Positions 8,725 through 32,000 of a stretch of DNA of 32,000 nt are shown piece after piece. Position 1 is the first letter of the stretch. Every line of letters starts with the position of its first letter. The notes below the pieces were generated by a model. That model worked only from the letters and a program-made list of their open reading frames with translations. It was not told where the DNA came from and made no database searches. The translations under genes and the position numbers were made by a program. This stretch comes from Halogeometricum borinquense DSM 11551 (GTDB lineage: Archaea > Halobacteriota > Halobacteria > Halobacteriales > Haloferacaceae), in the NCBI RefSeq assembly GCF_000172995.2, contig NC_014729.1:1920001-1952000 (forward strand). Reading direction: 5' to 3'.

Positions 8725-8785
8725 GGTGTATCTCCCGTGACGCACGAGCGTCACCGGCTTATCAGAATTCTCGCGTCAAATCGTG

Positions 8786-8839
8786 CATAAAGGTACGTAC
8801 CCGATTATCAGCCGTGATTCTCGCCGGGGAGCGTTTAAG
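8786..8839. promoter_or_regulatory. Divergent cheW / cheB-operon promoter sharing one 18-bp palindromic element
   Basis: ATTATC-AGCCGT-GATTCT at 8804-8821. Exactly 12 nt to the left is TTTATG (minus strand, 8786-8791); exactly 12 nt to the right is TTTAAG (plus strand, 8834-8839). Confidence 0.5.
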
Positions 8840-10161: not shown

Positions 10162-10164
10162 ACC

Positions 10165-13490: not shown

Positions 13491-13499
13491 AATAACACG

Positions 13500-15775: not shown

Positions 15776-17523
15776 ACGCTAATCAGTGCTCCTGCGAGCG
15801 ATGAGGTGGCGACGGCACTCGCACAGCCGATCCATACGAGCACCACGAAGTGGAGGTAGGCGTTCGCCTTGTGTCCGCCGTCAACCATCCGAATCATCAA
15901 CGACGACAACAGCGCGTTGAAGAGGATGATGAGTGCGAGTAAGTATTCGATCAGCGGGATATCGTAGACGCCCGCGTAAATGAGTTGCCCGAACTGCATC
16001 TGTCCGAGGTTCATCTTCGTCGAGAACGAGGCCAGAATCTCTACGACCTCCAGGCCGATGAAGAACGCGAACGACGCTGACGCCGTGATACCGTAGAGGA
16101 CGCCGATAAGCGTAACCGTCGCTTGTTCACGCTGACGGCGAAGTTTGACAATCTCGTTCATGTTGCTTGAGATGAGTTCGCCGAGTTGCTTCGGCGTCCC
16201 ACCCATCTGGCGGCCGATGTTGTACATCTCACTGAACTTCTGAATGAGGTAGGAACTCGCTTCGGCGGTGAAGAAGAACCACGACCGAGTCGGGCCGATC
16301 CGCATGTTGAGGCGGACGTACAACCGGTCGATCTCCCGAGAAAGGACACCGAAGTCCTTCGTCCGGAGCGTCTTCAGGACGGCGGTCGTCGTACTCTGCT
16401 TTGCACTCTCGGAGGCACCCAGCGCGCGGATAAATCCGGGGTACTCCTCGTCACGCTCTTTGATACGGTTCTCGTGCCGCCGGGCGATGATTCCCGGAAT
16501 CGCCAAGGGCGTGAGAGGGGCGGCGATGAGTAACGGGATAGGCGTATCGAGCATGACCGACTGCACGGACTGTCCAATCGAGGTGAATCCAGCCGTTCCG
16601 AGGGCAAGGATGCCGACCAAGACGAACGAGAGCGCAACGGCACCGTAAAGTGCGATGTCTATCTGCCGGTCGGCCTTCGTCCGGTATTCGCTTTGGACGT
16701 ACCAGAGCGGGTCGTACGGCGACATCGTCTTGATGACGTAGTAGAACCCGAGTTGGACGAAGACGAACAGGACGATGACTGCGGCGATGGTCAACGTTGC
16801 GTCGGTCCCAGTGAGGATTGGCAGGACGATTGCGTTGATGACTGCGAACGTCATCGACAGAATCATCGAGAGGTAGAGGTCCTTCATGACCTCGAGGTTC
16901 CCGAGTGCGCTCTCGTAGACGGTGATGTACTTTTGGACCATTGCGCTCTGCTCACCGAGAAGGAAGTCGTCAATATCCTGCCCCGCGCTGAGCGAGTACG
17001 CGAGCCTGTCGAGGAAGTCTGCAAGCGGCTTCGATGGAACCTGCCGGGCACGACGCTCACAGGCGTCGTCAAGCGACTGGTTCCACGTATCAACCAGTTC
17101 GGTGATGCGGCGCATCTCGATGGCGAGTTCGCCGTACTCCTCTTCTTTCCCCAGTTGTCTGAACACCGACACCCGGTCGATGTTCGTCGTCGAGAGGACA
17201 GTCATGTGGGTGATGAGGAGATGCAGTTGGTTCTCTAACCCTCGGCGTTGCTCTTCGACGAGGAGACGCGGGTACAACACCGCGCCAATGAGCATGAGCG
17301 CGCCTAAAAGGAAGATCGGGATACGGACGAGTAACGGCAACGGAAGCGCAATCGCACCGGCGAGCGATGCTATGAAGAACACCACCGCAGGGAGCAACAC
17401 CACCAGACCGTAGCGTCTGATGGGCATCGGCATCCGTTCGTACGACTCCAGTACGGAGTCAAGGAACGCTCTGACTTGCTTCGTCTGCGTTCCGAACTCT
17501 TCTCCGGTACTCGCCTCGGACAT
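15772..17523 (-). CDS. arlJ: Archaellum platform membrane protein ArlJ (FlaJ)
   Basis: 583-aa polytopic membrane protein of the GspF/TadC-like type, immediately downstream of arlI. Confidence 0.9.
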   Translation of the reverse strand: MSEASTGEEFGTQTKQVRAFLDSVLESYERMPMPIRRYGLVVLLPAVVFFIASLAGAIALPLPLLVRIPIFLLGALMLIGAVLYPRLLVEEQRRGLENQLHLLITHMTVLSTTNIDRVSVFRQLGKEEEYGELAIEMRRITELVDTWNQSLDDACERRARQVPSKPLADFLDRLAYSLSAGQDIDDFLLGEQSAMVQKYITVYESALGNLEVMKDLYLSMILSMTFAVINAIVLPILTGTDATLTIAAVIVLFVFVQLGFYYVIKTMSPYDPLWYVQSEYRTKADRQIDIALYGAVALSFVLVGILALGTAGFTSIGQSVQSVMLDTPIPLLIAAPLTPLAIPGIIARRHENRIKERDEEYPGFIRALGASESAKQSTTTAVLKTLRTKDFGVLSREIDRLYVRLNMRIGPTRSWFFFTAEASSYLIQKFSEMYNIGRQMGGTPKQLGELISSNMNEIVKLRRQREQATVTLIGVLYGITASASFAFFIGLEVVEILASFSTKMNLGQMQFGQLIYAGVYDIPLIEYLLALIILFNALLSSLMIRMVDGGHKANAYLHFVVLVWIGCASAVATSSLAGALISV

Positions 17524-17525
17524 CG

Positions 17526-19193
17526 TTACAACCTCGCCATATCGAACGGGAGGCCCTCCGCGCCGTCCCGTTGGAAGTCCTCGATGAGTTCGTTCACTTC
17601 GTGGTAGCCAGTGATGTTCTCTTGGATGGCGCGGCGGACGATTTCAGCACGGTACTCAACGTCATCGTAGATCTTCCGCGTGTCGTCGTACCCGAGGAGG
17701 GTCGCGATCTTCTCCTCCATGATGAAGGAGTTGTTCCGTCCCTGGAACACGATTTCGTCATCGACGGGGTCCCAGTAGAACGCCTCGCGCGTGACGACGC
17801 CGCCCATCTCCTTCGAGTAGCCTTCGATCTCCTGCACGCTGGTCACGCGGCGGAGCGTATCGTTGCCCCGTTTGACCCGGTTTTGGAACAGCGCAATGTC
17901 ACAGTTCGACATGAACGTCTCGGGGACATTGATCGGGTCGCCAGTGAAACGTTGAATCATCGAGACGATGTCGGATGCGTGGAACGTCAGCATCACCGGG
18001 TGACCGGTCTGTGCTGCCTGGAACGCCATCCGACCCTCTTCACCACGAACCTCCCCCACGATGATGTAGTCGGGGCGCGAACGCAGCGCGGCCGCAACGA
18101 GGTCGAACATGTCAACCTCAGAGTCCGCACCGCGGCCTTCGCGCGTGAGGAGTTGCTGCCACGTATCGTGCGGCGGCAGCACCTCCGCGGTGTCCTCTGC
18201 GGTGTAAATCTTCGAGTCTTGCGGGATAAACGAGAGGATCGCGTTGAGCGTCGTCGTCTTCCCAGATGCCGTCTCGCCAACAACGAAGATGGTCCGCTCG
18301 TTCTCTAACGCCATCCAGAGGTAGCCGCACAACTCCGGCGAGAGCGTCCCCCACTTCGTAATCTGGAATATCGACAGCGGAACGTCATCGCCCTGACGGA
18401 TGGTGAGGCTCGACCCTTTCAGCGACACGTCGTCGGAGTAGATGATGTTGATACGCGACCCGTCCGGGAGCGTCGAGTCCACGATGGGGTGTGCGTCGGA
18501 AACGGGGTCACCGATGCGTTCACCCATATTCCGAAGCCAGTTGTCGAACTGGTCTTTCGAGCCGAACTCGACTGTCGTCTCCAACAGACCGTAGACACCG
18601 TGGTCCACGTCGACCTGTTGGGGACCGATCACGTGAATGTCCTCGTTCGCCGGGTCGCGCATGATGGGTTCGAGCGGCCCCAGACCTACGATGTCGCGCA
18701 CCAAGCGGTACTGTATCTTCTCGTAGGTCTCCTCTGTGATCTGCATGGGCCCAATATCCAACCGTTGGATGAGTTCGTGGACCCGGCCCGTTTGTTTGCC
18801 TTCGAGGACGACAATCTCCTCCAGCAACTCCTCGATACGGTCCTCGTACTCCACGTCACCCTCCGGTGCGGGCTTCGATACGGAACGTTCGAGCAGTTTG
18901 TCTTTCACCTGATCGAATACCTCCTGTTCCTCCTCGTCGAGTTCCGGTTCGATAGCGTAGTACTTCGTCGTCTCCCCGAAGTTGCCGTACACTTGGGCGT
19001 AGATTGGCCCGCCGAGGTGGTAGATGATGTTCGGACGGCGAGATTCGTACTCACCCGACGCTTCCTCGACCAGCATCGGGAACTCCCCGGTTATCTGCCG
19101 GAAGCGCTTGAGGTGATCGCGCAGGTGCCCCCAGCGCATCGCGTGCTGTTTCAGGTCGTCGGACAGTTTCGCAGAGCCGTGTTCGGTCGCCAT
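17526..19193 (-). CDS. arlI: Archaellum motor/assembly ATPase ArlI (FlaI)
   Basis: 555-aa type II/IV secretion-family ATPase. Walker A VVGETASGKTTTLNA, Asp and His boxes (IIVGEVRGEE ... TGHPVMLTFHA). The stop of arlH abuts its ATG. Confidence 0.95.
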   Translation of the reverse strand: MATEHGSAKLSDDLKQHAMRWGHLRDHLKRFRQITGEFPMLVEEASGEYESRRPNIIYHLGGPIYAQVYGNFGETTKYYAIEPELDEEEQEVFDQVKDKLLERSVSKPAPEGDVEYEDRIEELLEEIVVLEGKQTGRVHELIQRLDIGPMQITEETYEKIQYRLVRDIVGLGPLEPIMRDPANEDIHVIGPQQVDVDHGVYGLLETTVEFGSKDQFDNWLRNMGERIGDPVSDAHPIVDSTLPDGSRINIIYSDDVSLKGSSLTIRQGDDVPLSIFQITKWGTLSPELCGYLWMALENERTIFVVGETASGKTTTLNAILSFIPQDSKIYTAEDTAEVLPPHDTWQQLLTREGRGADSEVDMFDLVAAALRSRPDYIIVGEVRGEEGRMAFQAAQTGHPVMLTFHASDIVSMIQRFTGDPINVPETFMSNCDIALFQNRVKRGNDTLRRVTSVQEIEGYSKEMGGVVTREAFYWDPVDDEIVFQGRNNSFIMEEKIATLLGYDDTRKIYDDVEYRAEIVRRAIQENITGYHEVNELIEDFQRDGAEGLPFDMARL

Positions 19194-19942
19194 TATGCAA
19201 CACTCCTGCTTTCGATGACGATGCCGATTCCCGACCGGACCGAGAACCCGATTCGGTCACCGACCTGTTCGCCCATCCCCGCAAAGCGCTTCACGAAGAT
19301 GTTCCGACGCACGTCGTTCCCGACCTCGACCATCTCCAACTGAAGGTACACGTCCGCGATAGACCGGAACGGTCCGATAGCGTCCTCGTCCACAGTGGAG
19401 GGGTCAACGGTGAGTATGATAGTCTTGTTCTTCGTCGTCAGCTCGCGGAAGAACGAGATAATTTCGAGAGCGGCCTGTCGCTCTTCGTTCTGACGAACGA
19501 GTGCTTCGAACTGCGGGTCGTTACGCAGGATGGCGTCGAACGTGTCGATGATGGTCACGTCCGCCTCCCACAGCGTCTCGGCCTCCATGAGTCGCCGGAG
19601 GAGTTGTTTTCGCTCGGAGGCGTTTCCGCCGGTTAGCGCGCCGGAGGCGTCTATCTCGGCCGGGATGAAAAGCACTTCCTCGTTGAGCAAGGGCTTCACC
19701 ATATCGTACTCCAGCGAGTGCATCTGGTCGAGGAAGCCACGGACGCCCAACTCCGTGGAGATGAGGGACGTAACGATATCCTCCTGACTGAACCCGTAGG
19801 TAAACCGCTGTGAGAGGACACTCTTTCCGGCACCATAGTCCCCTTCGATGAGGACGATGGCCCCGCGTGGGATCCCTCCACCGAGTTCTTTCTGCAACCG
19901 GTCGTGCTGTTGTAACCCGAGTGAGAATTGATTTGATTTCAT
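19193..19942 (-). CDS. arlH: Archaellum KaiC/RecA-like ATP-binding protein ArlH (FlaH)
   Basis: 249 aa with Walker A GDYGAGKS; lies between arlG and arlI. Confidence 0.9.
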   Translation of the reverse strand: MKSNQFSLGLQQHDRLQKELGGGIPRGAIVLIEGDYGAGKSVLSQRFTYGFSQEDIVTSLISTELGVRGFLDQMHSLEYDMVKPLLNEEVLFIPAEIDASGALTGGNASERKQLLRRLMEAETLWEADVTIIDTFDAILRNDPQFEALVRQNEERQAALEIISFFRELTTKNKTIILTVDPSTVDEDAIGPFRSIADVYLQLEMVEVGNDVRRNIFVKRFAGMGEQVGDRIGFSVRSGIGIVIESRSVA

Positions 19943-19945
19943 AGA

Positions 19946-20398
19946 TTACGTCCTGAATCTGAACGTCTCTTCGTCGCCGTCAACGACGAGTTTCACGCGA
20001 TGGTCTTCGTTATCAGCCAACGACAGGTCGCCGATGACGACTTTGACCACGCCGTGCGGTCCCCAGTGGGAGTCGCCGTCGGCGACAGTAACCGTGACAT
20101 TGGTTCGGTACTGTGCGTTCACGATGACGTCGAACGTCTGTCCAGTCGCCGGAAGGGTTCGCGTACCGGTGTTCTTCACGTACAGCGTGAGGTTCCCGGA
20201 ACCGGAGTCGTACACTGACGACTCGGAGTCGCTGATAATTTCTACGTCGGTACGGATGTTCTTCGACACGTCCGCTCCCCGATCATCGAGGGCGCTACTG
20301 ATGTCCGTCACCGTGTTGATAAGAACGCCCGAAACGCCTGCAGCGATAACGAGGCTGGCGATGAACAGGATGAGCGTCGGTGCGGAGACGTCTGCCAT
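19946..20398 (-). CDS. arlG: Archaellum stator-associated protein ArlG (FlaG)
   Basis: 150 aa. An N-terminal TM helix (APTLILFIASLVIAAGVSGVL) is followed by a beta-rich soluble domain (LTLYVKNTGTRTL). Position is between arlF and arlH. Confidence 0.8.
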   Translation of the reverse strand: MADVSAPTLILFIASLVIAAGVSGVLINTVTDISSALDDRGADVSKNIRTDVEIISDSESSVYDSGSGNLTLYVKNTGTRTLPATGQTFDVIVNAQYRTNVTVTVADGDSHWGPHGVVKVVIGDLSLADNEDHRVKLVVDGDEETFRFRT

Positions 20399-20401
20399 CG
20401 G

Positions 20402-20854
20402 TTAGACCTCCTCCAGCGTCGAGTTCGAGTCAGTGACGCCGTTTTCGGTGACTATCTTGACCCGTTTCGGTTCGTTGTCTACGGTGAGTTCGATCAGGAG
20501 CGTCTCGTTGGGTGCCCAGATGTCGGTGCCCGACGTACCATCGACAGTTCGCGTGGACCCGCTCGGCTGCTGATACTCGTTATTCACGAGGACCGATGTG
20601 TCGTTGGCCGACAGCGTCAGCGTTCCCGTATTCTTGACACGGATGTCCATCGGATAGGTTCCGCTGTTGTTGCTGTAGGTGACCGACGTGACGTTTATGC
20701 CCGTGTTGCGCCGTTCGAGCAGGTGTTCGCTGTTCGAGTCCTCAGCGTCGTTGAGCATTTCTGTCGTGTCCGACACAGTGGTGTACAGCGTCCCCGTAGC
20801 GATGAGTACGCCGAGGAAGATGATCGCCGTGGAACCACTAACGCCGAAGCCCAC
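20402..20854 (-). CDS. arlF: Archaellum stator-associated protein ArlF (FlaF)
   Basis: 150 aa. An N-terminal TM helix (STAIIFLGVLIATGTL) is followed by a beta-sandwich-like domain (IRVKNTGTLTL). It overlaps the arlCDE stop by 17 nt. Confidence 0.8.
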   Translation of the reverse strand: MGFGVSGSTAIIFLGVLIATGTLYTTVSDTTEMLNDAEDSNSEHLLERRNTGINVTSVTYSNNSGTYPMDIRVKNTGTLTLSANDTSVLVNNEYQQPSGSTRTVDGTSGTDIWAPNETLLIELTVDNEPKRVKIVTENGVTDSNSTLEEV

Positions 20855-22208
20855 GGTGACCCCCTCCTCGGTGCGACAGCTCTTCGAGCAGACGCGCCTC
20901 GGCGACGTCGCCCGCGAGTCGGCTGACGTACGTGAGGCTTTCTTTGTGGTGTTCGACGCGGAGGTCTTGTGGTTCCTCTGCCGTCGTCGAGGCGGCGGCG
21001 TTGCGAACGTGCGCGTTCATCTGTTTCTCGACGGTACGCGAGATCCATTCTTGTTCGCGGTACTGACGGAGCGCACGCGCAGCGCCGATTGCGCCACCGA
21101 CAGACACGAGGAATCGAGTCCATTCCAACGCGACTGACTCCGCGACGTAGCTTGCAGGTAACGACGCGAGGTAGACATCCGATGCTTCGTCCGTCTGTTG
21201 GGATGTCTGGTCGGCGGTCGTTTCGGCAAACTCGAACGAACCAGTATCGTCCGTCTCGGTCGTTGCAACTGGTTCGTCCGTGAGTTCCACGTCGTCTTCG
21301 GTGTCCGGTTCGCCTGCTTCGAGTTCTTCCTCCAACGTTTCTTCTTCTTCTTCTTCTTCCGACTCCGCATCTTCCTCGCCAACGAGTTCCTCTGTTGTCG
21401 GAATATCGTCATCCTCGACAGCTAAGTCGTCGGTGTCGAGAGGCGAATCATCGACCTCTTCGTCTTCTTCTTCGTCTTCTTCGTCCCACCCCTCCTCCTC
21501 TTCGTACTCGGATTTCAGATCGTCGAAGCTCGACCCACCGCTGGCCTCTTCTTCGTCATCCTCGACAACCGGCTCCTCGTCTCCGAGAATCTCCTCTGCG
21601 GGATCCTCCCGCTCGTTCTCGGCGAGTTCGTCTTCGGCGGCCAACTCCGCTTCTTCGGACTCTTCTTCGAGTTCACCGAAGTCTTCGTCGAAGAAGCTCT
21701 CTGCGTCCGCAGACGCGACATCGGGGTCGAGATGTTCCTCTTCTTCTTCTTCGGCGTCGAACAGACCGAACGACCCGCCGCCTTCTAGCCCACCCATCTC
21801 GCGGGCGTCGTCAACGAACGGGTTGATTCCGCGAGTGACCATCTCGTAGATGTCGAGCAGTTTGCGGACGGTATCGTCGAGTTCTTCGACGGTTTCTCCG
21901 ATCTGTTTGTTCTCTTCGCGGACGGTGTTGACGCTGGAAGACGTGGCACTGACCTCGTTCTCTAGGTCGGAGACGCGGTCTTCCAGTTCGGCGATGGTGT
22001 TGGGATCGACGTCCCCGCCGCCCCCTCCACCGAAGTCTCCGCCGTCGTCGTCGAAGCCTTCCATGTCGTCGTCTTCGAAGTCTCCGAAGTCGTCTCCGAA
22101 GTCGTCGAGGTCCTCGTCGAATCCGAGGCCGTCGGTTGCAAGACCGGTCCCCTCACCGTCAGACCGCGTCTCTTCGTCTTCCCCGTCTATCCAATCCATC
22201 ATTCCCAT
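20838..22208 (-). CDS. arlCDE: Fused archaellum switch protein ArlCDE (FlaC coiled-coil + acidic linker + FlaD/E domain)
   Basis: N-terminal FlaC-like coiled coil (IAELEDRVSDLENEV ... LLDIYEMVTRGINPF), a ~180-aa poly-Glu/Asp linker, and a C-terminal FlaD/E domain (YLASLPASYVAESVALEWTRFLV ... ALRQYREQEWIS). GGAGG lies 8 nt upstream of the ATG. Confidence 0.82.
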   Translation of the reverse strand: MGMMDWIDGEDEETRSDGEGTGLATDGLGFDEDLDDFGDDFGDFEDDDMEGFDDDGGDFGGGGGGDVDPNTIAELEDRVSDLENEVSATSSSVNTVREENKQIGETVEELDDTVRKLLDIYEMVTRGINPFVDDAREMGGLEGGGSFGLFDAEEEEEEHLDPDVASADAESFFDEDFGELEEESEEAELAAEDELAENEREDPAEEILGDEEPVVEDDEEEASGGSSFDDLKSEYEEEEGWDEEDEEEDEEVDDSPLDTDDLAVEDDDIPTTEELVGEEDAESEEEEEEETLEEELEAGEPDTEDDVELTDEPVATTETDDTGSFEFAETTADQTSQQTDEASDVYLASLPASYVAESVALEWTRFLVSVGGAIGAARALRQYREQEWISRTVEKQMNAHVRNAAASTTAEEPQDLRVEHHKESLTYVSRLAGDVAEARLLEELSHRGGGHRGLRR

Positions 22209-22361: not shown

Positions 22362-22397
22362 CAAGAATGTTGCCACCAAATTATCAGCCGTGATATG
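22362..22397 (-). promoter_or_regulatory. arlCDE-operon promoter module (palindrome + 12 nt + weak TATA-like box)
   Basis: Gene-oriented CATATC-ACGGCT-GATAAT (22380-22397), then ttggtggcaaca, then TTCTTG (22362-22367). The 14-mer TTATCAGCCGTGAT is identical to the cheW/cheB site. Confidence 0.4.
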
Positions 22398-22510: not shown

Positions 22511-23257
22511 ATGCCAGAGTTCGTAAAAACCGGAGTCGAAGGCCTCGACTCCATCCTAAACGGCGGCATCGTCAAGAACGCCGCGGTACTCATCAGCGGC
22601 AACCCCGGTACGGGGAAGAGTATCCTCGGTCTGCAGTATCTCTACAACGGCGTCGACAAATACGACGAAGGAGGAATCTACCTCACCTTCGAGGAAGCCG
22701 AAGACGACATCCAAGAGGCGGCAGAGTCCATCGGATTCGACCGGTGGTCGGAGTACGTCGAGGAAGGGAAGATCAAAGTGTACGATAAGCGCACGCTACT
22801 TCGTGACGGCGACTTCTCTTCGACGCTCGACCGGATCCTCGGCGACCTCCAGGACACGTCGTACGACCGACTTGTCCTCGACTCGCTAACGATGTTCCAA
22901 CTGTTCTTCGAAGACGAAAAGGAACAACGACAGTACCTCCTCAAGTTCATCGACATCCTGAAAGATAGCGACCTGACCTCGCTTTTGACTACCGAACAGT
23001 CTGCTATCTTCCCCGAAACGGAGATTGGACTGGAGAACTTCCTCACCGACGGGAACATCTACCTGATACAGAGCCCCGCCGGTGCGACGAGTAATCGGTA
23101 CGTCTGGGTGGCGAAGATGCGGAAACAGTCGATCAAGAATTCGATGTTCCCCCTCGAAATCAACGAGGGCGGGATTCAGATATACGAACAAGCGGCTGGC
23201 TTCTCGATGGTCGGTGAGTCGCCGCCGTGGTTCGGCGACGAGGGCGACTTAGAGTAG
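22511..23257 (+). CDS. Single-domain KaiC/RecA-superfamily ATPase
   Basis: 248 aa: TGVEGLDSILNGGI, Walker A GNPGTGKS, Walker B-like RLVLDSLT. Divergent from the arl operon and convergent with the archaellin genes. Confidence 0.85.
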   Translation: MPEFVKTGVEGLDSILNGGIVKNAAVLISGNPGTGKSILGLQYLYNGVDKYDEGGIYLTFEEAEDDIQEAAESIGFDRWSEYVEEGKIKVYDKRTLLRDGDFSSTLDRILGDLQDTSYDRLVLDSLTMFQLFFEDEKEQRQYLLKFIDILKDSDLTSLLTTEQSAIFPETEIGLENFLTDGNIYLIQSPAGATSNRYVWVAKMRKQSIKNSMFPLEINEGGIQIYEQAAGFSMVGESPPWFGDEGDLE

Positions 23258-23510: not shown

Positions 23511-24149
23511 TTAGAGTTCGATCGGGTCGCCCGCGTTCTTACCGGCGAGTTGCTGGGGCATCGTCAGGATAACCTGCGTCGTGCCACCCGTACGACTCGT
23601 GATTTCGAGCGTGACCGAGTCACCGGTGTTGAGACCGTTCGAGTGACCCGCGTCGTTCGTACCGGCTTCGATATCCGAGGTGTTGATGGTTGCAACGTAG
23701 CGGTCGTTCATGCTGTTGAGAACACCGAACGATCCGTCATCGTCGGTGACCTTATCCAGACCAAACTCGTTAGCGTCGGCGGTCTTAACCGTTCCGTCGC
23801 CGTCACTCGTTGTCTGGTTCGTCAGCGTCTGCACCGTATCCGAACTGAGGTATTTCACCGACGTCTCGTTCATGTCCACACTGCTGGACCCGGCTGCCAG
23901 ACGGACGGTCATGTTGATGCTACGAATCGTGTCGTCACCGACGACGCCGTGGGTGTTGAGCACCTCGACGCGGTTGGTGACCTTGTTTACGCTCTGTTCT
24001 CCCGCGTCTTCTGCAGTCGCCTGCAGGAAGCCGGCCGTGTTCACGAGGACCCCCGCGGCGATTGCCGCGACGAGGACCATCGCGATGAACACGATGAGCG
24101 TACCGATACCGACCTGACCGCGGTCGTCGTTGTTGAATTTCTCGAACAT
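23511..24149 (-). CDS. Archaellin (ArlA/ArlB family; FlgA/FlgB in haloarchaeal naming), short type, duplication unit 1
   Basis: [43 protein letters not shown] is a class III signal peptide with an RG/QVGIG cleavage context and a hydrophobic N-terminal helix. ATG 24149 chosen over TTG 24158. Confidence 0.93.
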
Positions 24150-24161
24150 TTTATTCAATCC

Positions 24162-24842
24162 TTAGAGAGCGATAGGGTCGTTGTCATTCTTGCCCGCGAG
24201 CTGCTGGGGCATCGTCAGGATGACCTGCGTCGAACCACCGGAACGGCTCGTAATCTCGAGCTTCACGGAGTCGCCAGTGCTGACACCGGCGCCGTTACCT
24301 TCAACGACCGACGTGTTGATGATCATCTCGTAGCGATCGGCCTGTCCGCTCAGCACGGGGAACGAGGTGTCGTCACCGTCTTCCAGCGCGTACGCCGCGA
24401 ACTCCGTGTTGTTCAGACCGTCGTTGCCGAGCGCCGCTGCGCCATCGTACTTACTGACGTTGCCGAGCTTCGTGCCGTCGGCGTCCGTCGTCGCGTTGTC
24501 GTACACGAGGTTCCGTGCCGTGGTCCCACTCACGTACTTGATGGTGGTGTCTTCGAGTGAGACACTGCCGGAACCAGCGGCGAGTCGAACCGTCAGGTTC
24601 AGACTGTCGACCGCGAGACCGTCACCGGTATCGTTGACGATACCGTGCTCGCTAACGACGTCAACACGGTTAGTGACCTTATTCACACTTTCCTGCCCCG
24701 CGTCCTGTGCAGTCGCCTGCAAGAACCCGGCCGTGTTCACGAGGACCCCGGCAGCGATTGCTGCGACGAGGACCATCGCAATGAACACGATGAGCGTACC
24801 GATACCGACCTGACCGCGGTCGGTGTCAAATTCTTCGAACAT
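24162..24842 (-). CDS. Archaellin, long type, duplication unit 1
   Basis: [42 protein letters not shown]. Several N-x-S/T sequons (NLT, NAT, NVS, NNT, NTS). Start trimmed to ATG 24842. Confidence 0.93.
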
Positions 24843-24862
24843 AGGTTGTATATCTCCAGTTC

Positions 24863-24894
24863 GGTCCCCCACCCCCTCGCCGGAGGAGAAGACC
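24863..24894 (-). promoter_or_regulatory. 32-nt 5'-leader hairpin of archaellin unit 1
   Basis: mRNA sense GGUCUUCUCCUCC-GGCGAG-GGGGUGGGGGACC. A pyrimidine arm pairs with a purine arm; 12 of 13 stem positions pair, 4 of them as G-U wobbles. Identical to the copy at 26347-26378. Confidence 0.4.
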
Positions 24895-24921
24895 TACGAT
24901 GGTGACAATCAGATTGACATA

Positions 24922-24957
24922 CATAATCCTACGGCTCTAATTATCCAATTTGATATC
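24922..24957 (-). promoter_or_regulatory. Archaellin unit-1 promoter module
   Basis: Gene-oriented GATATC-AAATTG-GATAAT (24940-24957), then tagagccgtagg, then ATTATG (24922-24927). Confidence 0.45.
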
Positions 24958-25000
24958 TAGAAGAAGAGTTCCGAAAGGCGATACGAGAGCGTCGGCGAAC

Positions 25001-25636
25001 TTAGAGTTCGACCGGGTCGCCCGCGTTCTTACCGGCGAGTTGCTGGGGCATCGTCAGGATGACCTGCGTCGTGCCACCCGTGCGGCTCGTTATCTCGAGC
25101 GTCACCTGTTCTCCGGTCTTGAGACCCTTGTCGTGGTTGGCGCTGTCGCCCGCTTCGACCTTGGTCGTGTTGATAGTGACGCCGTAACGGTCGTTCATGC
25201 TGTTGAGCACGCCGAACGATCCGTCATCGTCCGTCACCTCAGTGAGGGCGAATTCGTCGGAGTCGGCCTCTTGAATCAGGCCCTCCGAATCGTCGTCGGT
25301 CTGGTTCGTCAGCGTCTGCACCGTCGTCGCGCTGAGATACTTCACCGACGTCTCATTCATATCCACACTGCTGGAACCGGCCGCCAAGCGGACGGTCATC
25401 TGGATGTTGCGAATCGTGTCGTCGCCAACCTCGCCGTGGGTGTTGAGCACCTCGACGCGGTTGGTGACCTTGTTCACACTTTCTTGTCCGGCGTCTTCTG
25501 CAGTCGCCTGCAGGAAGCCGGCCGTGTTCACGAGGACCCCCGCGGCGATTGCCGCGACGAGGACCATCGCGATGAACACGATGAGCGTACCGATACCGAC
25601 CTGACCGCGGTCGTCGTTGTTGAATTTCTCGAACAT
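25001..25636 (-). CDS. Archaellin, short type, duplication unit 2
   Basis: Same N-terminus as 23511-24149 and the same C-terminal [26 protein letters not shown]; the central domain is diverged. Confidence 0.93.
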
Positions 25637-25648
25637 TTTATTCAATCC

Positions 25649-26326
25649 TTAGAGAGCGATGGGGTCGTTGTCGTTCTTGCCCGCGAGCTGCTGGGGCATC
25701 GTCAGGATGACCTGACTGGAACCGCCGGAGCGGCTCGTAATCTCGAGCTTCACGGATTCACCAGTGCTGAGTCCTTTCGTCGGGGTGTCTTCAACGACAG
25801 ACGTGTTGATGACGATTTCGTAGCGGTCGCCCTGATTGCTGAGAACAGGGAACGACGTATCGTCACCGTCTTCGAGTGCGTACGCCGTGAATTCCGTGTT
25901 GTTCAGACCGTCGCTACCGAAGTTCTTGTCGTTCGCACTGACGTTACCGAGCGACGTGCCGTCGGCGTCCGTCGTCGCGTTGTCGTACACGAGGTTCCGA
26001 GCCGTGCTATCACTGACGTACTTGATGGTGGTGTCTTCGAGTGAGACACTGCCGGAACCAGCGGCGAGTCGAACCGTCAGGTTCAGACTGTCAACAGTGA
26101 GTTCATTGGCTTCGTCGTTGACGATACCGTGGGTGCTGACAACGTCAACACGGTTGGTGACCTTATTCACACTTTCCTGTCCTGCGTCCTGTGCAGTCGC
26201 CTGCAAGAACCCGGCCGTGTTCACGAGGACCCCCGCGGCAATTGCCGCGACGAGGACCATCGCAATGAACACGATGAGCGTACCGATACCGACCTGACCG
26301 CGATCGGTGTCAAATTTTTCGAACAT
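25649..26326 (-). CDS. Archaellin, long type, duplication unit 2
   Basis: [20 protein letters not shown] ... C-terminus [30 protein letters not shown]. Paralog of 24162-24842. Confidence 0.93.
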
Positions 26327-26405: not shown

Positions 26406-26441
26406 CATAACGCTACGGTTCAAATTATCTTCGGTGATAAC
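26406..26441 (-). promoter_or_regulatory. Archaellin unit-2 promoter module
   Basis: Gene-oriented GTTATC-ACCGAA-GATAAT (26424-26441), then ttgaaccgtagc, then GTTATG (26406-26411). The 16-mer TTATCTTCGGTGATAA is identical to the arlD site. Confidence 0.5.
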
Positions 26442-26573
26442 GGACCACCGGCACGAGGATGAATAAATTCTATGCGCACACGTGAGCACGTGCAACTGTT
26501 CGTTAGCAATTAGCAGAGATGAAAACGAAGGAGGGTGACGAGGACAGCGTGCGGGTGAGTTTCTGGTCGGGGA

Positions 26574-26912
26574 CTAGTCCCGCGCGATCTGACGCCAGAC
26601 GTCGTCGAGTTTGTTCTTGACTTCGGGACGCTCTGTGATCTGGATATTACACTCCTGTCCGTCAAAGCGGATGAGAATCTCGTCAACCTCGCGTCGGTAG
26701 ACGTTGGTACGTCGGTGCTCGTCGGAAAGGACCCTGTCGTGCAGTTCGAGAAGACCGGCGGAGGTCAGTTCTTCGATGCGGCGGTAGCACGTTGCAATCG
26801 GGATATCGAGCATCTCGCTGAACTCTTGTGCAGAGTGGGGTTCGTCTGCAGCCCGTAATATATCGGGGTTGTAATCGTTGCCCAGTGCTGAGAGGGTCCT
26901 GTCAGACTCCAT
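26574..26912 (-). CDS. Small winged-helix (ArsR/TrmB-like HTH) transcriptional regulator
   Basis: 112 aa. HSAQEFSEMLDIPIATCYRRIEELTSAGLL is a helix-turn-helix followed by a wing (RTNVYRR). ATTAGC (minus strand, 26936-26941) is centred ~27 nt upstream of the ATG, suggesting a leaderless mRNA. Confidence 0.8.
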   Translation of the reverse strand: MESDRTLSALGNDYNPDILRAADEPHSAQEFSEMLDIPIATCYRRIEELTSAGLLELHDRVLSDEHRRTNVYRREVDEILIRFDGQECNIQITERPEVKNKLDDVWRQIARD

Positions 26913-26935
26913 AGATGGAGATACTTCTGTCGTGA

Positions 26936-26971
26936 GCTAATGTGAATGTGTTGGTTATCTGGATGAGAAAT
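26936..26971 (-). promoter_or_regulatory. wHTH-regulator promoter module (possible autoregulation)
   Basis: Gene-oriented ATTTCT-CATCCA-GATAAC (26954-26971), then caacacattcac, then ATTAGC (26936-26941), which lies ~27 nt upstream of ATG 26912. Confidence 0.4.
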
Positions 26972-27142
26972 CGGACTGACGAAGGGGGTAACTGGTACCA
27001 GATGCTCTCAAAGCGCAGGTCAGTTTAGAGTGCTGTAGCTGTTTGTGGCGGGGCAATCGCGTTCCGGAGAACCCCATCCAATGGGCTCTGTTCTGTACTG
27101 GACGGCGATGGTCTTATTAGTTCGCCGTGGCCACCTCCCGGC

Positions 27143-27712
27143 ATGGCGTCCGACGACCCTCCCAGAGACCATCCATCGCGACGACGTGAGGAGGGTATCA
27201 TCGGACCGCGTGAGTTAGATTACACAGAGAGCAGTCGTGTGGCAGAACTGGAGGAGGGCCGGTTCGTCGTCGCCACCGACAACGACGGAACGCCGAACGT
27301 TGATGCGGACGAAGAGATACCCTCGGAGGAAGAACGAACGATAGAAGAACGCGGAAAGTTCGCCAGCCAACAGATGGCGCGGTACGTCTCAGACCGGGAC
27401 GCCGACTTCGGATTTGCGCTTACTGCGTCGTTCGAGGAGTCAATCGAACAGCGGGAACTGTTTTCCGACGACGTGGCCACAGCGTTCGGTGACATCGCTC
27501 AGTGGTATGCAAGCCAAGTCGAGGCCGATGCCTCCCCCGCGGAGGTACTCGGCATTCTCCTCCTCGCGTCGGACACTGACGTGACGTTTCCAACAAAAGT
27601 ACTCGCACCCGTGCTCCGCGAGCAGGGCCTGACTCTCGATGACTCCATCGGTGACCTCGTCGAAGCGCTCGCCGGGGATGGACTTCAGATACCACCACCG
27701 AACGAAAAATAG
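27143..27712 (+). CDS. Acidic hypothetical protein, no recognisable domain
   Basis: 189-aa ORF with coding-like codon bias. It has a disordered acidic N-terminal ~70 aa and a helical C-terminal part. TTATTA at 27114-27119 is centred ~27 nt upstream of the ATG. Confidence 0.6.
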   Translation: MASDDPPRDHPSRRREEGIIGPRELDYTESSRVAELEEGRFVVATDNDGTPNVDADEEIPSEEERTIEERGKFASQQMARYVSDRDADFGFALTASFEESIEQRELFSDDVATAFGDIAQWYASQVEADASPAEVLGILLLASDTDVTFPTKVLAPVLREQGLTLDDSIGDLVEALAGDGLQIPPPNEK

Positions 27713-27759: not shown

Positions 27760-27795
27760 CATATCAGCGCTGATAATGGGGGGGAAGGGTTTATA
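27760..27795 (+). promoter_or_regulatory. cheY-cheC-cheD promoter module
   Basis: CATATC-AGCGCT-GATAAT (27760-27777; TATCAGCGCTGATA is a perfect 14-nt palindrome), then gggggggaaggg, then consensus TATA box TTTATA (27790-27795) ~27 nt before ATG 27820. Confidence 0.55.
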
Positions 27796-27819: not shown

Positions 27820-28188
27820 ATGGCAAGCACCGTACTGGTCGTGGACGACTCAGCGTTTATGCGGAACCTGCTGAAGCAGTTGCTCGATGGGGAGCACGAA
27901 GTAGTCGGCGAGGCAGAGAACGGCGTCGAAGCGGTCGAGATGTACCGAGAACTCGAACCAGATGTGGTCACGATGGACGTCGTGATGCCGATTCGGAACG
28001 GCATCGAGGCGACAACCGAAATCAAGTCGCTAGACCCCAACTCGTCGGTCATCATGTGCACGTCCGTCGGACAAGAAGAGAAGATGCGCGAGGCCGTCGA
28101 GGCCGGTGCTGACGGCTACATTACGAAGCCGTTCCAGAAGCCGAACGTGCTCCAAGCTATCGACGACGTGGTGAGCGTCGAGGCATGA
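27820..28188 (+). CDS. cheY: Chemotaxis response regulator CheY
   Basis: 122 aa: VLVVDDSAFMRNLL ... DVVTMDVVMPIRNG ... GYITKPF. ATG 27820 chosen; TTTATA at 27790-27795 is centred ~27 nt upstream, with AGGAG just before the ATG. Confidence 0.93.
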   Translation: MASTVLVVDDSAFMRNLLKQLLDGEHEVVGEAENGVEAVEMYRELEPDVVTMDVVMPIRNGIEATTEIKSLDPNSSVIMCTSVGQEEKMREAVEAGADGYITKPFQKPNVLQAIDDVVSVEA

Positions 28189-29384
28189 ATCTCGACGTCC
28201 AGTCGTTACGGACGTTCAGCCGCCTCGCACACTCCGGTGCGGAACGTGCTGCGGGGTCGCTGTCGCAACTCACCGGCATCGAGACGTTCGTCAACGTTAC
28301 GAAAATCGAAGTCAGCACGCGAGCCGACGTGGAACGTGAGTTCCGCGAACAGGATCTCGTGACTGTCCATATCGGATTTAACGGCGGCATCGACGGCCGG
28401 ACCGTCCTCGCGTTCGACCGTCAGGAGGCCGTCCAGCTCGTCGATGCACTCGTTCCCGGTGCTGCAGACCAACCGGACGGTGAGATGGCGACGAGCGGAC
28501 TGAAGGAACTCGGAAACATCATGCTCGGGGGCTTCCTCGACGGATGGGCCGACTACCTCGATACGTCTATCGACATCACCACGCCGACGTACGTGGACAT
28601 GCAGACGGAAGGGGCGTTAGAAGACATCACCGGCGACTCCGGATTCCAGATGGCGACGGGCGACGACCACGTCCTCGCGTTCCGGAATCAGTTAGATACG
28701 GACGATCAACAGGTCGGCTTCCATATCTACATGCTCCCGACGCACGATTCCATCAAGACGATTTCCCGCATCGCGGGCGATGGATCGACGGCGGTGCCGA
28801 TAGAGACGTTCACGTCCTTCTCGAACATGATTTCGGACGGTGCCGAACAGGCGTCCGATGACCTCACGGCGATGACCGGCATGGAGTCGGTCGTCGAAGT
28901 GAGTCGCCTGAGTTTCGTCCCGATTGAGGCGGTTCCGATGGAACTCACTGACGCGACCCGTCGTGGTGTCGTCTTGGAGTTCATGGGGACGCCCTCCGGG
29001 TATATCGCTATCTTGTTCGATGAAACGTCCGCAGACCGCGTTGCGGACGCACTCATGCCCGGTATGGAAGCTGACCCGGCCATGCAGCAGAGTGCAATCC
29101 AAGAAATCGGCAACATCGTCACCTCCGGATTCATCGACGGGTGGGCGAACGCGCTAGAGACGACCATCGATATCTCACCGCCGACGTACGTGGACGACCT
29201 CGGCTCTGCCATCATTGACCCGTTGGCAACCGAACTCGCGCAGGCGCAAGAGTACGCTTTCCTCATTGACTCGGCTATTCGCACTCCGAACGACGAGTTC
29301 ACGTGCGACATCTATGCGCTTCCGAACGAAGCCGAACTCCGCGATGCCTTAGACCGTCTCGGAGCGGAGGTACAACAGCCGTAA
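28185..29384 (+). CDS. cheC: CheC-family CheY-P phosphatase, duplicated CheC domain
   Basis: 399 aa with two CheC-like halves, each starting with a ...AAGSLSQLTG / AEQASDDLTAMTG helix and carrying LKELGNIMLGGFLDGWA / IQEIGNIVTSGFIDGWA active-site-type motifs. ATGA overlap with the cheY stop. Confidence 0.85.
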   Translation: MNLDVQSLRTFSRLAHSGAERAAGSLSQLTGIETFVNVTKIEVSTRADVEREFREQDLVTVHIGFNGGIDGRTVLAFDRQEAVQLVDALVPGAADQPDGEMATSGLKELGNIMLGGFLDGWADYLDTSIDITTPTYVDMQTEGALEDITGDSGFQMATGDDHVLAFRNQLDTDDQQVGFHIYMLPTHDSIKTISRIAGDGSTAVPIETFTSFSNMISDGAEQASDDLTAMTGMESVVEVSRLSFVPIEAVPMELTDATRRGVVLEFMGTPSGYIAILFDETSADRVADALMPGMEADPAMQQSAIQEIGNIVTSGFIDGWANALETTIDISPPTYVDDLGSAIIDPLATELAQAQEYAFLIDSAIRTPNDEFTCDIYALPNEAELRDALDRLGAEVQQP

Positions 29385-29439
29385 CGAGGAGACGACACCG
29401 AGCGTCTACCTCGTGTCGTCTCCCCCCGAACAAACCACG

Positions 29440-29949
29440 ATGAAAGTTTACACGAGCAACACGACCGAAACGCGCACGCTACCAGAGCGCACGAAAGTCG
29501 GTATTGCAGACTACGCCGTCGCAACGGGCAACGCAACGTTGACCACCAGCGGTCTGGGGTCGTGTGTAGGGATCGCACTCTACGACAGCCAAGCGGGAGT
29601 TGGCGGCCTTGCACACGCGATGCTCCCCTACGCGGACGGCGATACGGACGAAGCGAAGTACGCCGATACCGCTATCCGCGCACTCCTCGAGGCGATGGTC
29701 GAGAAAGGTGCGAAACGTCGGCGAATCCGCGCCAAGATTGCCGGTGGGAGTACGATGTTCGAGTTCTCCTCGGCCGATGGCAGCATCGGTGAACGAAACG
29801 CTGTCGCCGCCAAGGAGACACTCGCCCGAGAAGATATCGACCTCGTCGCCGAGGATGTCGGTGGCGAGCACGGGAGGTCACTCGAACTCGACGTCAGCAA
29901 CGGCAATCTCGAGGTTCGAAGTGCCCACGTGGGCAAAGACACGATCTGA
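29440..29949 (+). CDS. cheD: Chemoreceptor glutamine deamidase CheD
   Basis: LTTSGLGSCVGIALYD ... GGLAHAMLP ... AKIAGGSTMF. ATG 29440 chosen over GTG 29413. Confidence 0.9.
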   Translation: MKVYTSNTTETRTLPERTKVGIADYAVATGNATLTTSGLGSCVGIALYDSQAGVGGLAHAMLPYADGDTDEAKYADTAIRALLEAMVEKGAKRRRIRAKIAGGSTMFEFSSADGSIGERNAVAAKETLAREDIDLVAEDVGGEHGRSLELDVSNGNLEVRSAHVGKDTI

Positions 29950-30177: not shown

Positions 30178-30213
30178 GTTATCTTCGGTGATAATCACGG
30201 GGGCAGGTTTATC
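30178..30213 (+). promoter_or_regulatory. arlD promoter module
   Basis: GTTATC-TTCGGT-GATAAT (30178-30195), then cacgggggcagg, then TTTATC (30208-30213). Same spacing and G-rich spacer as the cheY module. Confidence 0.5.
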
Positions 30214-30310
30214 AAGCACCCGCGGCTGGTTTGCACCAACGCACCCAGTCTCCGACAGAGGGAGATAGCCGTACGGCGTCGTCGTGCCGTCGTGCGAGCG
30301 AGGTGAGGCC

Positions 30311-31327
30311 ATGAAGATAGACCCCGACAACTACGACCTACGCGAACTCCGGCGCATCGCCGACGAACGACGCACCGACCGAGGCGGAAGCGACGACACA
30401 GAGCGTCGCCGCGACTACGATGACGGTCACCGCGGTCATGACGACGGTCACCGCGGTCATGACGACGGTCACCGTGGCCATGACGACGGTCACCGAGAGT
30501 ACGATGATGGACACCGTAGTCACGACGACGACCACCGCGGACGCGATGGTGGACACCGTAGTCACGACGACGGACGCCGTGGGCGCGACGATGGCCGGCG
30601 CTCCCGAGATGGATCTGACCGCGGTGACAGAAACGGCCGTGACAACCGCGGCGAGCGCCGCGGACGCTCCCGGCGGGAAGATAATCTCCGTCGCCCCCGC
30701 GAGGGCTACAGCGATCATGCGGAGGCTCACGACGAAGTCGTCCGTGCAGACCAAATCGCAAACCGATTCGGCCTGGGTGGAAACGGAACGGGCGGCAGCG
30801 ACGGGCGTGGGCGGGGCTACGACGAACTCGGCTACGAGCGCTCCCGCGAGGACCGGTCGTACGACGGGTACGACTTCGAGGAGGTTGGCGAATTCCGGTT
30901 CGATAACCCGGTCCACGACCGTCCGCGCGGCCGTGCGGGCGAGGCACTTCGGAACAACCAACTCGAGCAGTTGCTCATCCACGAGACGGCGGCCGCGGGC
31001 GGGTCGTTGGAGAAGCCGTACCTCTCTAGCGTCCCGAAAGAATACGCCGCAGAACGTGTCGTCTTCGACTGGCTGGAATTTCTGGTCCTGAAAGGCGGAT
31101 TCAAGCGAACGATGGACGCGCTTCGGTACTACCACTCCGTCGATTGGATCACCGAGGATGTCGAGACCGAACTGCACGACTATCTCATCGGCTTCTCGGG
31201 CAACGTCTCGGACACGACGGAGTTCGACGTTGACGACCATCACCTCAGTCTCCTGTACGTCGCACAACTTGCTTCGATGGCCGACGGCGTCGAGACGAAA
31301 GCGCGTAGTCCGTCTGCGCTCCGTTAA
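30311..31327 (+). CDS. arlD: Archaellum protein ArlD (FlaD/E domain) with an N-terminal His/Asp/Arg heptad-repeat region
   Basis: C-terminal FlaD/E domain (PYLSSVPKEYAAERVVFDWLEFLV ... ALRYYHSVDWITEDV), a paralog of the ArlCDE C-terminus. ATG 30311 is preceded by AGGTGAGG; GTG 30284 is an alternative start. Confidence 0.82.
   Translation: MKIDPDNYDLRELRRIADERRTDRGGSDDTERRRDYDDGHRGHDDGHRGHDDGHRGHDDGHREYDDGHRSHDDDHRGRDGGHRSHDDGRRGRDDGRRSRDGSDRGDRNGRDNRGERRGRSRREDNLRRPREGYSDHAEAHDEVVRADQIANRFGLGGNGTGGSDGRGRGYDELGYERSREDRSYDGYDFEEVGEFRFDNPVHDRPRGRAGEALRNNQLEQLLIHETAAAGGSLEKPYLSSVPKEYAAERVVFDWLEFLVLKGGFKRTMDALRYYHSVDWITEDVETELHDYLIGFSGNVSDTTEFDVDDHHLSLLYVAQLASMADGVETKARSPSALR
30419..30607 (+). 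repeat. Nine tandem 21-nt (heptad) repeats inside arlD
   Basis: GACGACGGTCACCGCGGTCAT-type units encode DDGHRGH x3, then DDGHREY, DDGHRSH, DDDHRGR, DGGHRSH, DDGRRGR, DDGRRSR. They decay into an RG/RD-rich tail up to ~30670. Confidence 0.85.
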
Positions 31328-31388: not shown

Positions 31389-32000
31389 ATGGCGGAGGAT
31401 GGAACAGACGAAGATGCCTCGTTCGACGACGAAACTGCAAAGGGACCAACCCCGGTGGGGGTAAAGCTGGGAAGTACGCGAACGATACTCCAGTTTTACG
31501 ACGGTGACGGCGATCTGGAGACCGTTCGGACACTCACCTGTCTGGCAACGTACGAAGACGCGCTCACGGGTGACGAACGCGTCCTCTACGGGGAACAGGC
31601 CGCACAAGAATACCCAGACAGCGTCGAGTACATGCTCCGTTCGGGGCTGCCGGAGAACGACGACGGAGCCGAACTCGCAAAGAAGTTCTTTAGCGAACTG
31701 GTGAATGCGAACGGTCTGGACGGCGACAGCGCGGTCGTCTATGCGATTCCCACGATAGACAACGAACCCGGCCTGCGGAACCTCAACCGTGTCATCGAGG
31801 AAAGCCCGGTCGGTGACGCCCTCGTCCGGAGTTTCCCCGAATCGCTCTGCGGTGCGATTCCGGCGTTCGGAGACGAGTTAGAGGCAATCGACAGCGTGTT
31901 CGCCGCGATCAACATGGGTTCGACCAACCTCGAAGCCTCGGCGTACCGGCACGGTGAACAACTCTCGCCGTTCGTCTCGGGTGCCGTTACCGGCAACGAG
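31389..32000 (+). CDS. ParM/actin-like ATPase (ASKHA fold), 5' partial; runs off the window
   Basis: Hand-translated open frame of 204 codons with no stop before the window end; it is absent from the supplied ORF track. The translation begins MAEDGTDEDASFDDETAKGPTPVGVKLGSTRTILQF ... The later region AVVYAIPT ... SFPESLCGAIPAF ... IDSVFAAINMGSTNLEAS matches the phosphate-1 / connect / phosphate-2 layout of ParM-like actins. TTTTCA at 31360-31365 is centred ~27 nt upstream of the ATG. Confidence 0.6.
   Translation, partial: MAEDGTDEDASFDDETAKGPTPVGVKLGSTRTILQFYDGDGDLETVRTLTCLATYEDALTGDERVLYGEQAAQEYPDSVEYMLRSGLPENDDGAELAKKFFSELVNANGLDGDSAVVYAIPTIDNEPGLRNLNRVIEESPVGDALVRSFPESLCGAIPAFGDELEAIDSVFAAINMGSTNLEASAYRHGEQLSPFVSGAVTGNE

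Follow-up and report, generated by a model that had tools for sequence, protein, structure and literature searches.

A predicted CsmR ortholog beside the archaellin genes of Halogeometricum borinquense, with CsmR boxes at the motility promoters and a different box at its own promoter

We analysed a 32,000-nt stretch of Halogeometricum borinquense DSM 11551 DNA (contig NC_014729.1; the whole stretch is called the window below), which, as judged by open reading frames (ORFs), Pfam matches and public gene calls, holds a complete haloarchaeal motility and chemotaxis cluster. Just upstream of the archaellin genes lies an ORF of 112 codons. A first-pass annotation had taken its product for a candidate winged helix-turn-helix (wHTH) master regulator that reads a palindrome repeated in the cluster and controls its own gene through a copy of the same element. 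The ORF is the predicted ortholog of CsmR (HVO_1209), a regulator of the motility and shape of Haloferax volcanii cells; the palindromes at the motility promoters are its putative binding sites, and its own promoter appears to lack one. The genes around the ORF, which we call csmR, are as follows.

22511-23257, plus strand: KaiC-like gene (Pfam KaiC, 2.8e-51), convergent with the archaellin genes
24162-24842 and 23511-24149, minus strand: second archaellin pair (gene calls)
25649-26326 and 25001-25636, minus strand: first archaellin pair (gene calls)
26574..26912, minus strand: csmR coding sequence, ATG start, 112 aa plus stop; the most upstream possible start is used
27143-27712, plus strand: DUF7500 gene (Pfam), counterpart of HVO_1208
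27820-29949, plus strand: cheY (27820-28188), cheC and cheD (Pfam)

The csmR product has a mass of 13 kDa; an identical protein is encoded in Halogeometricum borinquense genomes, and our ORF calls match the public ones. The gene is located 218-248 nt upstream of the archaellin genes (23511-26326), is co-oriented with all four of them and is divergent, across a 230-bp gap, from the DUF7500 gene that precedes cheY-cheC-cheD. Gene calls and Pfam thus confirmed the arrangement described earlier, and a Pfam HTH_20 match above the cut-off confirmed that the winged-helix ORF is real. It had also been named the sole DNA-binding protein of the cluster, and no other large ORF has a Pfam helix-turn-helix (HTH) match: a second HTH gene was found neither among cluster ORFs of at least 100 aa nor in the gaps examined, smaller ORFs not having been scanned systematically.

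CsmR of H. volcanii was characterised in 2026 by deletion, overexpression, RNA-seq and chromatin immunoprecipitation with sequencing (ChIP-seq) (Nussbaum et al., PLoS Genet, PMC13286277; bioRxiv, February 2026). The deletion strain had no archaellum filaments and did not swim; overexpression made cells hypermotile and permanently rod-shaped (PMC13286277). ChIP-seq yielded 65 high-confidence peak-associated genes, the targets being archaellum, chemotaxis and cell-shape genes, and a motif of ∼34 bp, with the semi-palindrome TATCA-N4-TGATA ∼13 nt upstream of TATA boxes, was present in 50 of the 65 peaks (PMC13286277). Peaks in the arl/che region were reported at HVO_1200/1201, 1203, 1207 (cheY), 1210 (arlA1), 1212/1213 and 1224/1225 (PMC13286277). 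The regulator of the motility palindromes had therefore already been published, and what we provide here is its correct annotation, not its discovery.

The orthology is supported as follows. Compared with Haloferax proteins of the same length, the window protein showed 86-88% identity over residues 1-112; the closest homologs, all of 112 aa, were from Halogeometricum (91-99% identity) and from Haloferax, Halobellus and Halopelagius (83-88%). HVO_1209 is a gene of 338-339 nt, with the neighbours in the order CheC, CheY, HVO_1208 (uncharacterised), HVO_1209, ArlA1, ArlA2 (PMC13286277). We saw that the published primers for HVO_1209 deletion and the 34-mer of the arlA1 ChIP motif match exactly the flanks of the homologous ORF in one Haloferax locus (L010), the product of which is 87% identical to the window protein. 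The order cheD-cheC-cheY-DUF7500, then divergent csmR and arl genes, was kept in loci with at least 77% identity where the contig was long enough. Because of the agreement in length and neighbours, the exact primer and ChIP-motif matches in L010 and the conserved gene order, the window ORF is assigned as the H. borinquense ortholog of CsmR. The likeness extends to the surroundings, H. volcanii CsmR also being of 112 aa, with HVO_1208 (DUF7500) divergent, archaellins downstream and a cirA-like KaiC gene beyond; by position and family the KaiC-like gene at 22511-23257 is the predicted counterpart of cirA (HVO_1212), whose product is a reported modulator of CsmR output in H. volcanii (PMC13286277).

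In a sample of the 80 best homolog loci (scans were made with one genome per species) an archaellin gene was present within 1.2 kb of the csmR homolog in 66, across many genera and in two arrangements: directly downstream and co-oriented (40 loci) or directly upstream and divergent (26 loci). Among the remaining 14 loci about four were cut by contig ends. The co-occurrence with arl clusters, put forward in the first-pass annotation as a check, is thus borne out, in agreement with the STRING analysis in the CsmR paper (PMC13286277).

The palindrome noticed in the first pass, with two 6-nt halves and a 6-nt spacer, corresponds to the plain consensus WTTATC-N6-GATAAW, which had 25 matches in the window vs 7.2 expected. 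We also built a position weight matrix from 50 published CsmR ChIP motifs and scored the 16-bp core as well as the full 34-bp unit of box plus TATA (full-34). Nine window positions had a core score of at least 14 bits, vs 0.5 in shuffles. Six palindromes with full-34 scores of 21-30 bits were situated, each in the correct orientation, upstream of an arl or che unit, and each was followed ∼13 nt downstream by a TATA-like TTTAT. These boxes, together with the genes not listed above, are:

8242-8754, minus strand: cheW (Pfam)
8805..8820, plus strand: CsmR box common to the divergent cheW and cheB-cheA-cheR-cheF units; full-34 25.7 (plus), 21.4 (minus); H. volcanii equivalent, peak 138, HVO_1224/1225
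8977-14384, plus strand: cheB, cheA, cheR, cheF (Pfam)
14639-22208, minus strand: second cheF (cheF2), arlJ, arlI, arlH, arlG, arlF, arlCE (Pfam)
22381..22396, minus strand: CsmR box of arlCE-F-G-H-I-J-cheF2 (from 22208), with the cirA-like gene on its other side; core 20.3, full-34 22.4 in the arlCE orientation; H. volcanii equivalent, peak 135, HVO_1212/1213
24941..24956, minus strand: CsmR box at the second archaellin pair's promoter; full-34 29.5
26425..26440, minus strand: CsmR box TTATCACCGAAGATAA at the first archaellin pair's promoter, with GTTAT after a further 13 nt; differs from the plain palindrome consensus at one position; full-34 25.7; H. volcanii ortholog, ChIP peak 134 motif at arlA1
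27761..27776, plus strand: CsmR box, cheY-cheC-cheD promoter, TTTAT ending at 27794; full-34 30.3; H. volcanii ortholog, ChIP peak 133, HVO_1207
30179..30194, plus strand: CsmR box, arlD promoter; full-34 26.9; H. volcanii equivalent, peak 132
30284-31327, plus strand: arlD (Pfam Arch_fla_DE)

Scans of 39 close loci gave at least 19.6 bits at the arlA1 promoter and at least 21.4 bits at the cheY promoter, which serves as a control for the csmR promoter scores given below. The palindrome of the first pass and the published CsmR motif are one and the same element, and the proposal that the wHTH protein reads the palindromes of the cluster is upheld through its ortholog HVO_1209. As far as motif matches can tell, Halogeometricum and the Haloferacaceae at large have kept the CsmR regulon (box, TATA spacing and target units), which helps to split the core CsmR targets from Haloferax-specific ones. 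The two species are alike in having TATCA-N4-TGATA boxes at the equivalent arl/che promoters and none at the csmR promoter; they differ in that H. borinquense has four archaellin genes in two pairs, with a box for each pair, whereas H. volcanii has the single pair arlA1/arlA2. The H. borinquense archaellins form tandem pairs of 225/211 and 226/213 aa, and a conserved 5′ leader as well as the CsmR box precedes each pair. At cheY-cheC-cheD the spacing of box and TATA suggests a nearly leaderless transcript.

For the csmR promoter the first-pass annotation had proposed a half-site of the motility element placed before a TATA hexamer. The features in question, with a third one found here, are:

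26954..26959, minus strand: GATAAC, proposed proximal half-site, -47..-42 from the ATG; a chance hexamer, not a CsmR box
26941..26955, minus strand: csmR-promoter box ACCAAYACATTSACA = ACCAACACATTCACA, 15 bp, -43..-29 from the ATG
26936..26941, minus strand: ATTAGC, proposed TATA hexamer, -29..-24 from the ATG; not conserved

The two hexamers and the 12-nt spacer between them are exactly as had been described; however, by matrix scores and conservation they do not exceed chance. The layout had a core score of 6.0 bits (rank ∼90 of 63,970 window positions) and a full-34 score of 1.9 bits, below the weakest training site (7.9) and far from the 21-30 bits of the real window sites. Scored as half-site, spacer and TATA only, it reached 3.1 bits. 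In the window, 348 of 63,954 positions do at least that well, so that an intergenic region of 230 bp should hold more than one match of this quality by chance. Across 39 orthologous csmR promoters the GATA core varied (GTAACC, ACAACC, CGACC), only AAC(C) of GATAAC being conserved, as the 5′ edge of the csmR-promoter box, and at the ATTAGC position Haloferax reads CAAGCC. The core score at the own promoter did not exceed 11 bits in two Halogeometricum, 17 Haloferax and three other loci (Halopelagius included). The half-site-N12-TATA layout was therefore rejected as a CsmR site on matrix scores and non-conservation. The H. volcanii ChIP tables give neither a separate summit nor a motif in the HVO_1208/1209 intergenic region, and the csmR mRNA is stable across conditions and growth phases (PMC13286277); we found no discussion of csmR autoregulation in that paper. 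We infer that csmR does not belong to its own regulon in the Haloferax/Halogeometricum lineage; autoregulation, as proposed earlier for this genome, is thus not upheld.

What is conserved in this promoter is the box ACCAAYACATTSACA, referred to below as the ACACATT box: it was the conserved block among the 39 orthologous csmR promoters, with variants in Halobellus and at an invariant position. A stricter 10-nt core pattern of the box, searched for in the window and in loci L001-L039, matched nowhere except at the csmR promoter; a motif shared by the regulon was accordingly rejected as its explanation. The box occupies about the position that a canonical TTTATT box has in the csmR promoters of Haloplanus. 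Because of this position it would probably be a non-canonical core promoter, that is, a transcription factor B recognition element (BRE) with TATA box, or else the operator of another factor. If it is the core promoter, the csmR transcription start site (TSS) would be near -8..-6. The box would probably drive low, steady csmR expression. It may be read by a dedicated paralog of transcription factor B (TFB) or of TATA-binding protein (TBP), or may be the operator of a regulator standing above CsmR; the latter would add a tier to the hierarchy of motility and shape control.

In some other genera csmR promoters do carry CsmR palindromes. All 12 Halobellus loci (L005, L018-L022, L024, L027, L029-L031, L034) had a core of 14-20 bits at -65..-85 of csmR; four Salinigranum loci (L033, L035-L037) had a half-degenerate copy with a core of 14-16 bits at -21; and a near-perfect GTATC-N5-TGATAAC was observed at -19..-3 in all five Haloplanus loci (L064, L069, L071, L075, L080) and in an uncultured lineage (L040). 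The chance expectation of a core of at least 14 bits in such a promoter region is ∼0.004. The Haloplanus promoter reads TTTATT-N10-GTATCtaaacTGATAAC-N2-ATG, the canonical TTTATT being at -35..-30; the palindrome between TATA and ATG, over the likely TSS, is in what would be the classical position of an archaeal repressor site. Some lineages thus seem to have genuine self-control of csmR, whereas Haloferax and Halogeometricum seem to lack it. That autoregulation varies by lineage, csmR having been uncoupled from its own regulon in Haloferax and Halogeometricum, is a tentative generalisation, which we hold to be possible at best.

Turning to the protein, we found HTH_20 as the Pfam family above its cut-off (36 bits vs 27, E 6.8e-9, residues 18-57). 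The earlier suggestion to compare the protein with known families by profile search was answered in favour of ArsR-type HTH_20; TrmB, another candidate named there, remained under its cut-off (18 bits vs 25.6). A faint HTH_24 match scored 19.8 bits vs a cut-off of 21.9. The Pfam and NCBIfam scans yielded generic HTH families only, of which IclR, HTH_11 and Sta1 were rejected as being under their cut-offs. The AlphaFold2 model (mean predicted local distance difference test score, pLDDT, 81.8) consists of four helices and a two-strand wing, then two more strands and, at the C terminus, a short helix of low confidence. A Foldseek search against the PDB placed Phr (2P4W) on top (E 5.6e-5, template-modelling (TM) score 0.72, query-normalised), followed by PH1932 and ArsR/SmtB proteins; the best PDB sequence-profile match was PH1932 as well (E 7.5e-4, residues 5-105). 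Over 74 columns the wHTH core of the model fits CzrA, CadC and SmtB with a root-mean-square deviation of 1.1-2.6, to which the model adds two strands and the short helix. The CsmR paper classes the protein as Lrp/AsnC (PMC13286277), and Joint Genome Institute annotations label it likewise. Like Lrp/AsnC members it is a small dimeric wHTH regulator, but it lacks the α-β sandwich of the RAM domain: the RAM domain (PF01037, AsnC_trans_reg) went unmatched in Pfam at any E up to 1, no Lrp/AsnC structure was among the top 50 Foldseek matches, and a profile match to an Lrp/AsnC protein in the PDB (2p5v) had E 0.76. Lrp/AsnC membership was rejected, there being no RAM domain and, after the HTH, nothing besides the wing strands, two strands and a short helix. 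CsmR is, on the predicted model, an ArsR-type HTH_20 winged-helix protein with a Phr-like fold.

As a repressor, Phr occupies the transcription start; the CsmR boxes are upstream of BRE and TATA. Phr of Pyrococcus furiosus (2P4W) and PH1932 (1ULY/2CWE) share with CsmR the winged helix with an extended β-hairpin, and they act as dimers on palindromic DNA. They differ from it in length (∼190-200 aa) and in a C-terminal dimerisation domain, long and helical, that CsmR is without; the target-normalised TM score was only 0.43 and identity 19-24%. ArnR proteins are larger and are anchored in the membrane with transmembrane helices. CsmR, unlike them, has 112 aa, no hydrophobic segment in its sequence and a compact soluble model; still, ArnR/ArnR1 with ArnA/ArnB in Sulfolobales are dedicated regulators of the archaellum operon with post-translational modulators, and the pairing of CsmR with CirA is conceptually alike. 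EarA of Methanococcus and Pyrococcus works similarly: this small wHTH protein, needed for archaellation, binds DNA upstream of an archaellin promoter, and its overexpression, like that of CsmR, raises the motility apparatus or its output. Deletion of EarA lowers archaellin transcripts, whereas deletion of CsmR raises them. The CsmR paper reports no similarity of sequence or structure between the two (PMC13286277).

The C-terminal (E)VKNKLDDVWR (residues 100-112, window 26574-26612) was nearly invariant in 54 homologs: L102, D103 and W106 were invariant, and N100, K101, D104, V105 and R107 were at least 90% conserved. Model confidence was lowest here, at pLDDT 46-52. Such conservation points to a helix for partner binding or dimerisation; the published account describes the C-terminal part as less conserved and as a possible target of CirA (PMC13286277).

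At each box, immediately upstream of BRE and TATA, a CsmR dimer would insert its pair of recognition helices into successive major grooves, from where it would modulate the recruitment of TFB and TBP; its output would be set jointly with CirA, the KaiC-like product of the gene that adjoins the archaellins. As to the sign of this action, CsmR-bound arl/che genes rise, rather than fall, in the csmR deletion strain, arlA1 having 313 normalised counts at mid growth instead of 19 (PMC13286277). Deletion of cirA raises arlA1 >200-fold, far above the effect of csmR deletion, and the authors proposed that CsmR acts positively from upstream of BRE and TATA, with CirA as counterbalance (PMC13286277). 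Archaellation and swimming need CsmR in H. volcanii; to call it a 'master activator' is too simple, given the rise of the bound genes on deletion. We lean towards a dual role, in which CsmR and CirA jointly exert basal restraint and an excess of CsmR activates.

One could instead take CsmR to be essentially a repressor of the arl/che promoters, with motility lost on deletion only indirectly, for example through mis-timed or unbalanced expression or through loss of a CirA-dependent step. In H. volcanii the strongest up-regulation on deletion is indeed at genes with motif-containing, promoter-proximal peaks, arlA1 among them. However, a box upstream of BRE and TATA is in the usual position for an archaeal activator, overexpression brings more motility and cells locked as rods, deletion removes the filaments altogether, and the effect of cirA on arlA1 exceeds that of csmR by far; the authors, too, infer positive CsmR action with CirA as its counterweight (PMC13286277). 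We consider pure repression possible, though the less plausible account of the sign. Much less credit is due to an autoregulated leaderless csmR transcript, with CsmR bound at GATAAC 12 nt before an ATTAGC TATA, which we judge improbable. In its favour are the hexamers and spacing themselves, an over-representation of GATAAC in the window (16 vs 8.5 expected), the CsmR palindromes at csmR promoters of other genera and H. volcanii ChIP peak 134, the left shoulder of which reaches the csmR promoter; this peak (CP001956.1, 1099278-1100228) has its summit at the arlA1 box (PMC13286277, supplementary table S11), is strongly asymmetric (701 bp left vs 249 bp right of the summit) and spans the whole csmR gene with its promoter. 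Against it are the chance-level matrix scores, the variability of the GATA core and of ATTAGC while the stretch between them is conserved, the absence of a reported ChIP summit or motif at the H. volcanii csmR promoter, and the stable csmR mRNA; moreover, with the conserved box as promoter core, GATAAC would be ∼3 nt away from it and not 12-13. Least credible of all, and very nearly negligible in our estimate, is a generic ArsR/SmtB-type sensor of metal or stress that adjoins the archaellins incidentally. HTH_20 is the sole Pfam family above its cut-off, and public annotations read 'ArsR family transcriptional regulator'; but the immediate archaellin neighbour recurs in both arrangements across many genera, the ortholog has a direct motility phenotype and occupies arl/che promoters in ChIP, and the best structural match is Phr rather than a metal-sensing ArsR protein.

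Taken as one explanation, CsmR identity, a CsmR-box regulon and no self-control of csmR in this lineage have a probability of about 0.82 in our estimate. Several points count against this explanation. The function ascribed to H. borinquense CsmR would be transferred wholly from an ortholog of 87% identity. The training sites of the matrix include orthologs of the window promoters, which makes the scores not fully independent; the plain consensus search is free of this dependence. The H. volcanii data contain an apparent paradox of sign, the bound genes being up on deletion and the filament lost. The left shoulder of peak 134 over the csmR promoter could be an effect of fragment length or could reflect weak secondary binding. 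Finally, in the H. volcanii differential RNA-seq (dRNA-seq) tables the only TSS given for HVO_1209 lies inside the gene and is antisense. What is added here to the published account is modest: the apparently lineage-variable autoregulation, the csmR-specific promoter box, the classification as ArsR/Phr-like rather than Lrp/AsnC, and the conservation of the regulon beyond Haloferax; the first two of these, with the sign of regulation, make up the residual interest of the locus.

Upstream of the box of the first archaellin pair (26425-26440) we observed, at a distance of 21 nt, an AT-rich block AATTTATT (26462-26469, minus strand), with a GC-rich sequence before it that forms a repeat or palindrome, CACGTGCTCACGTG (26479-26492, minus strand). 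AT-rich blocks and CGCGTRCGCG-like palindromes are found at the same position in Halogeometricum, Halopelagius and Haloferax loci. One could speculate that the AT-rich block serves as a second TATA box, in which case the matching TSS would be inside the CsmR box, and one CsmR dimer could repress the upstream promoter and assist the downstream one. Such a dual-promoter arrangement would be a possible, entirely speculative, route to the higher transcript levels and missing filaments of the csmR deletion strain.

After arlD an ORF starting with MAEDGTDEDASFDDE runs from ∼31390 to 32000 (plus strand) and leaves the window at its end; H. volcanii has HVO_1202 at this place, and ArlD and HVO_1202 form one unit there (PMC13286277). 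No HTH was apparent from reading the translation of this ORF, for which no Pfam scan was made.

The DUF7500 gene has no CsmR box. Its canonical TATA, CTTATTA (27113-27119), is centred 27 nt before the ATG (27143), a spacing that agrees with the leaderless TSS mapped by dRNA-seq for the H. volcanii ortholog HVO_1208 (TATA at -28). HVO_1208 is highly expressed, and its log2 fold change on csmR deletion is just 0.3-0.7 (PMC13286277). The gap between csmR and the DUF7500 gene contains a perfect 10-bp palindrome, CTGGTACCAG, at 26992-27001; inverted repeats of different sequence occupy the equivalent place in related genera, for example CCGGTGG-N7-CCACCGG in locus L001 and CTCA-N10-TGAG in Haloferax.

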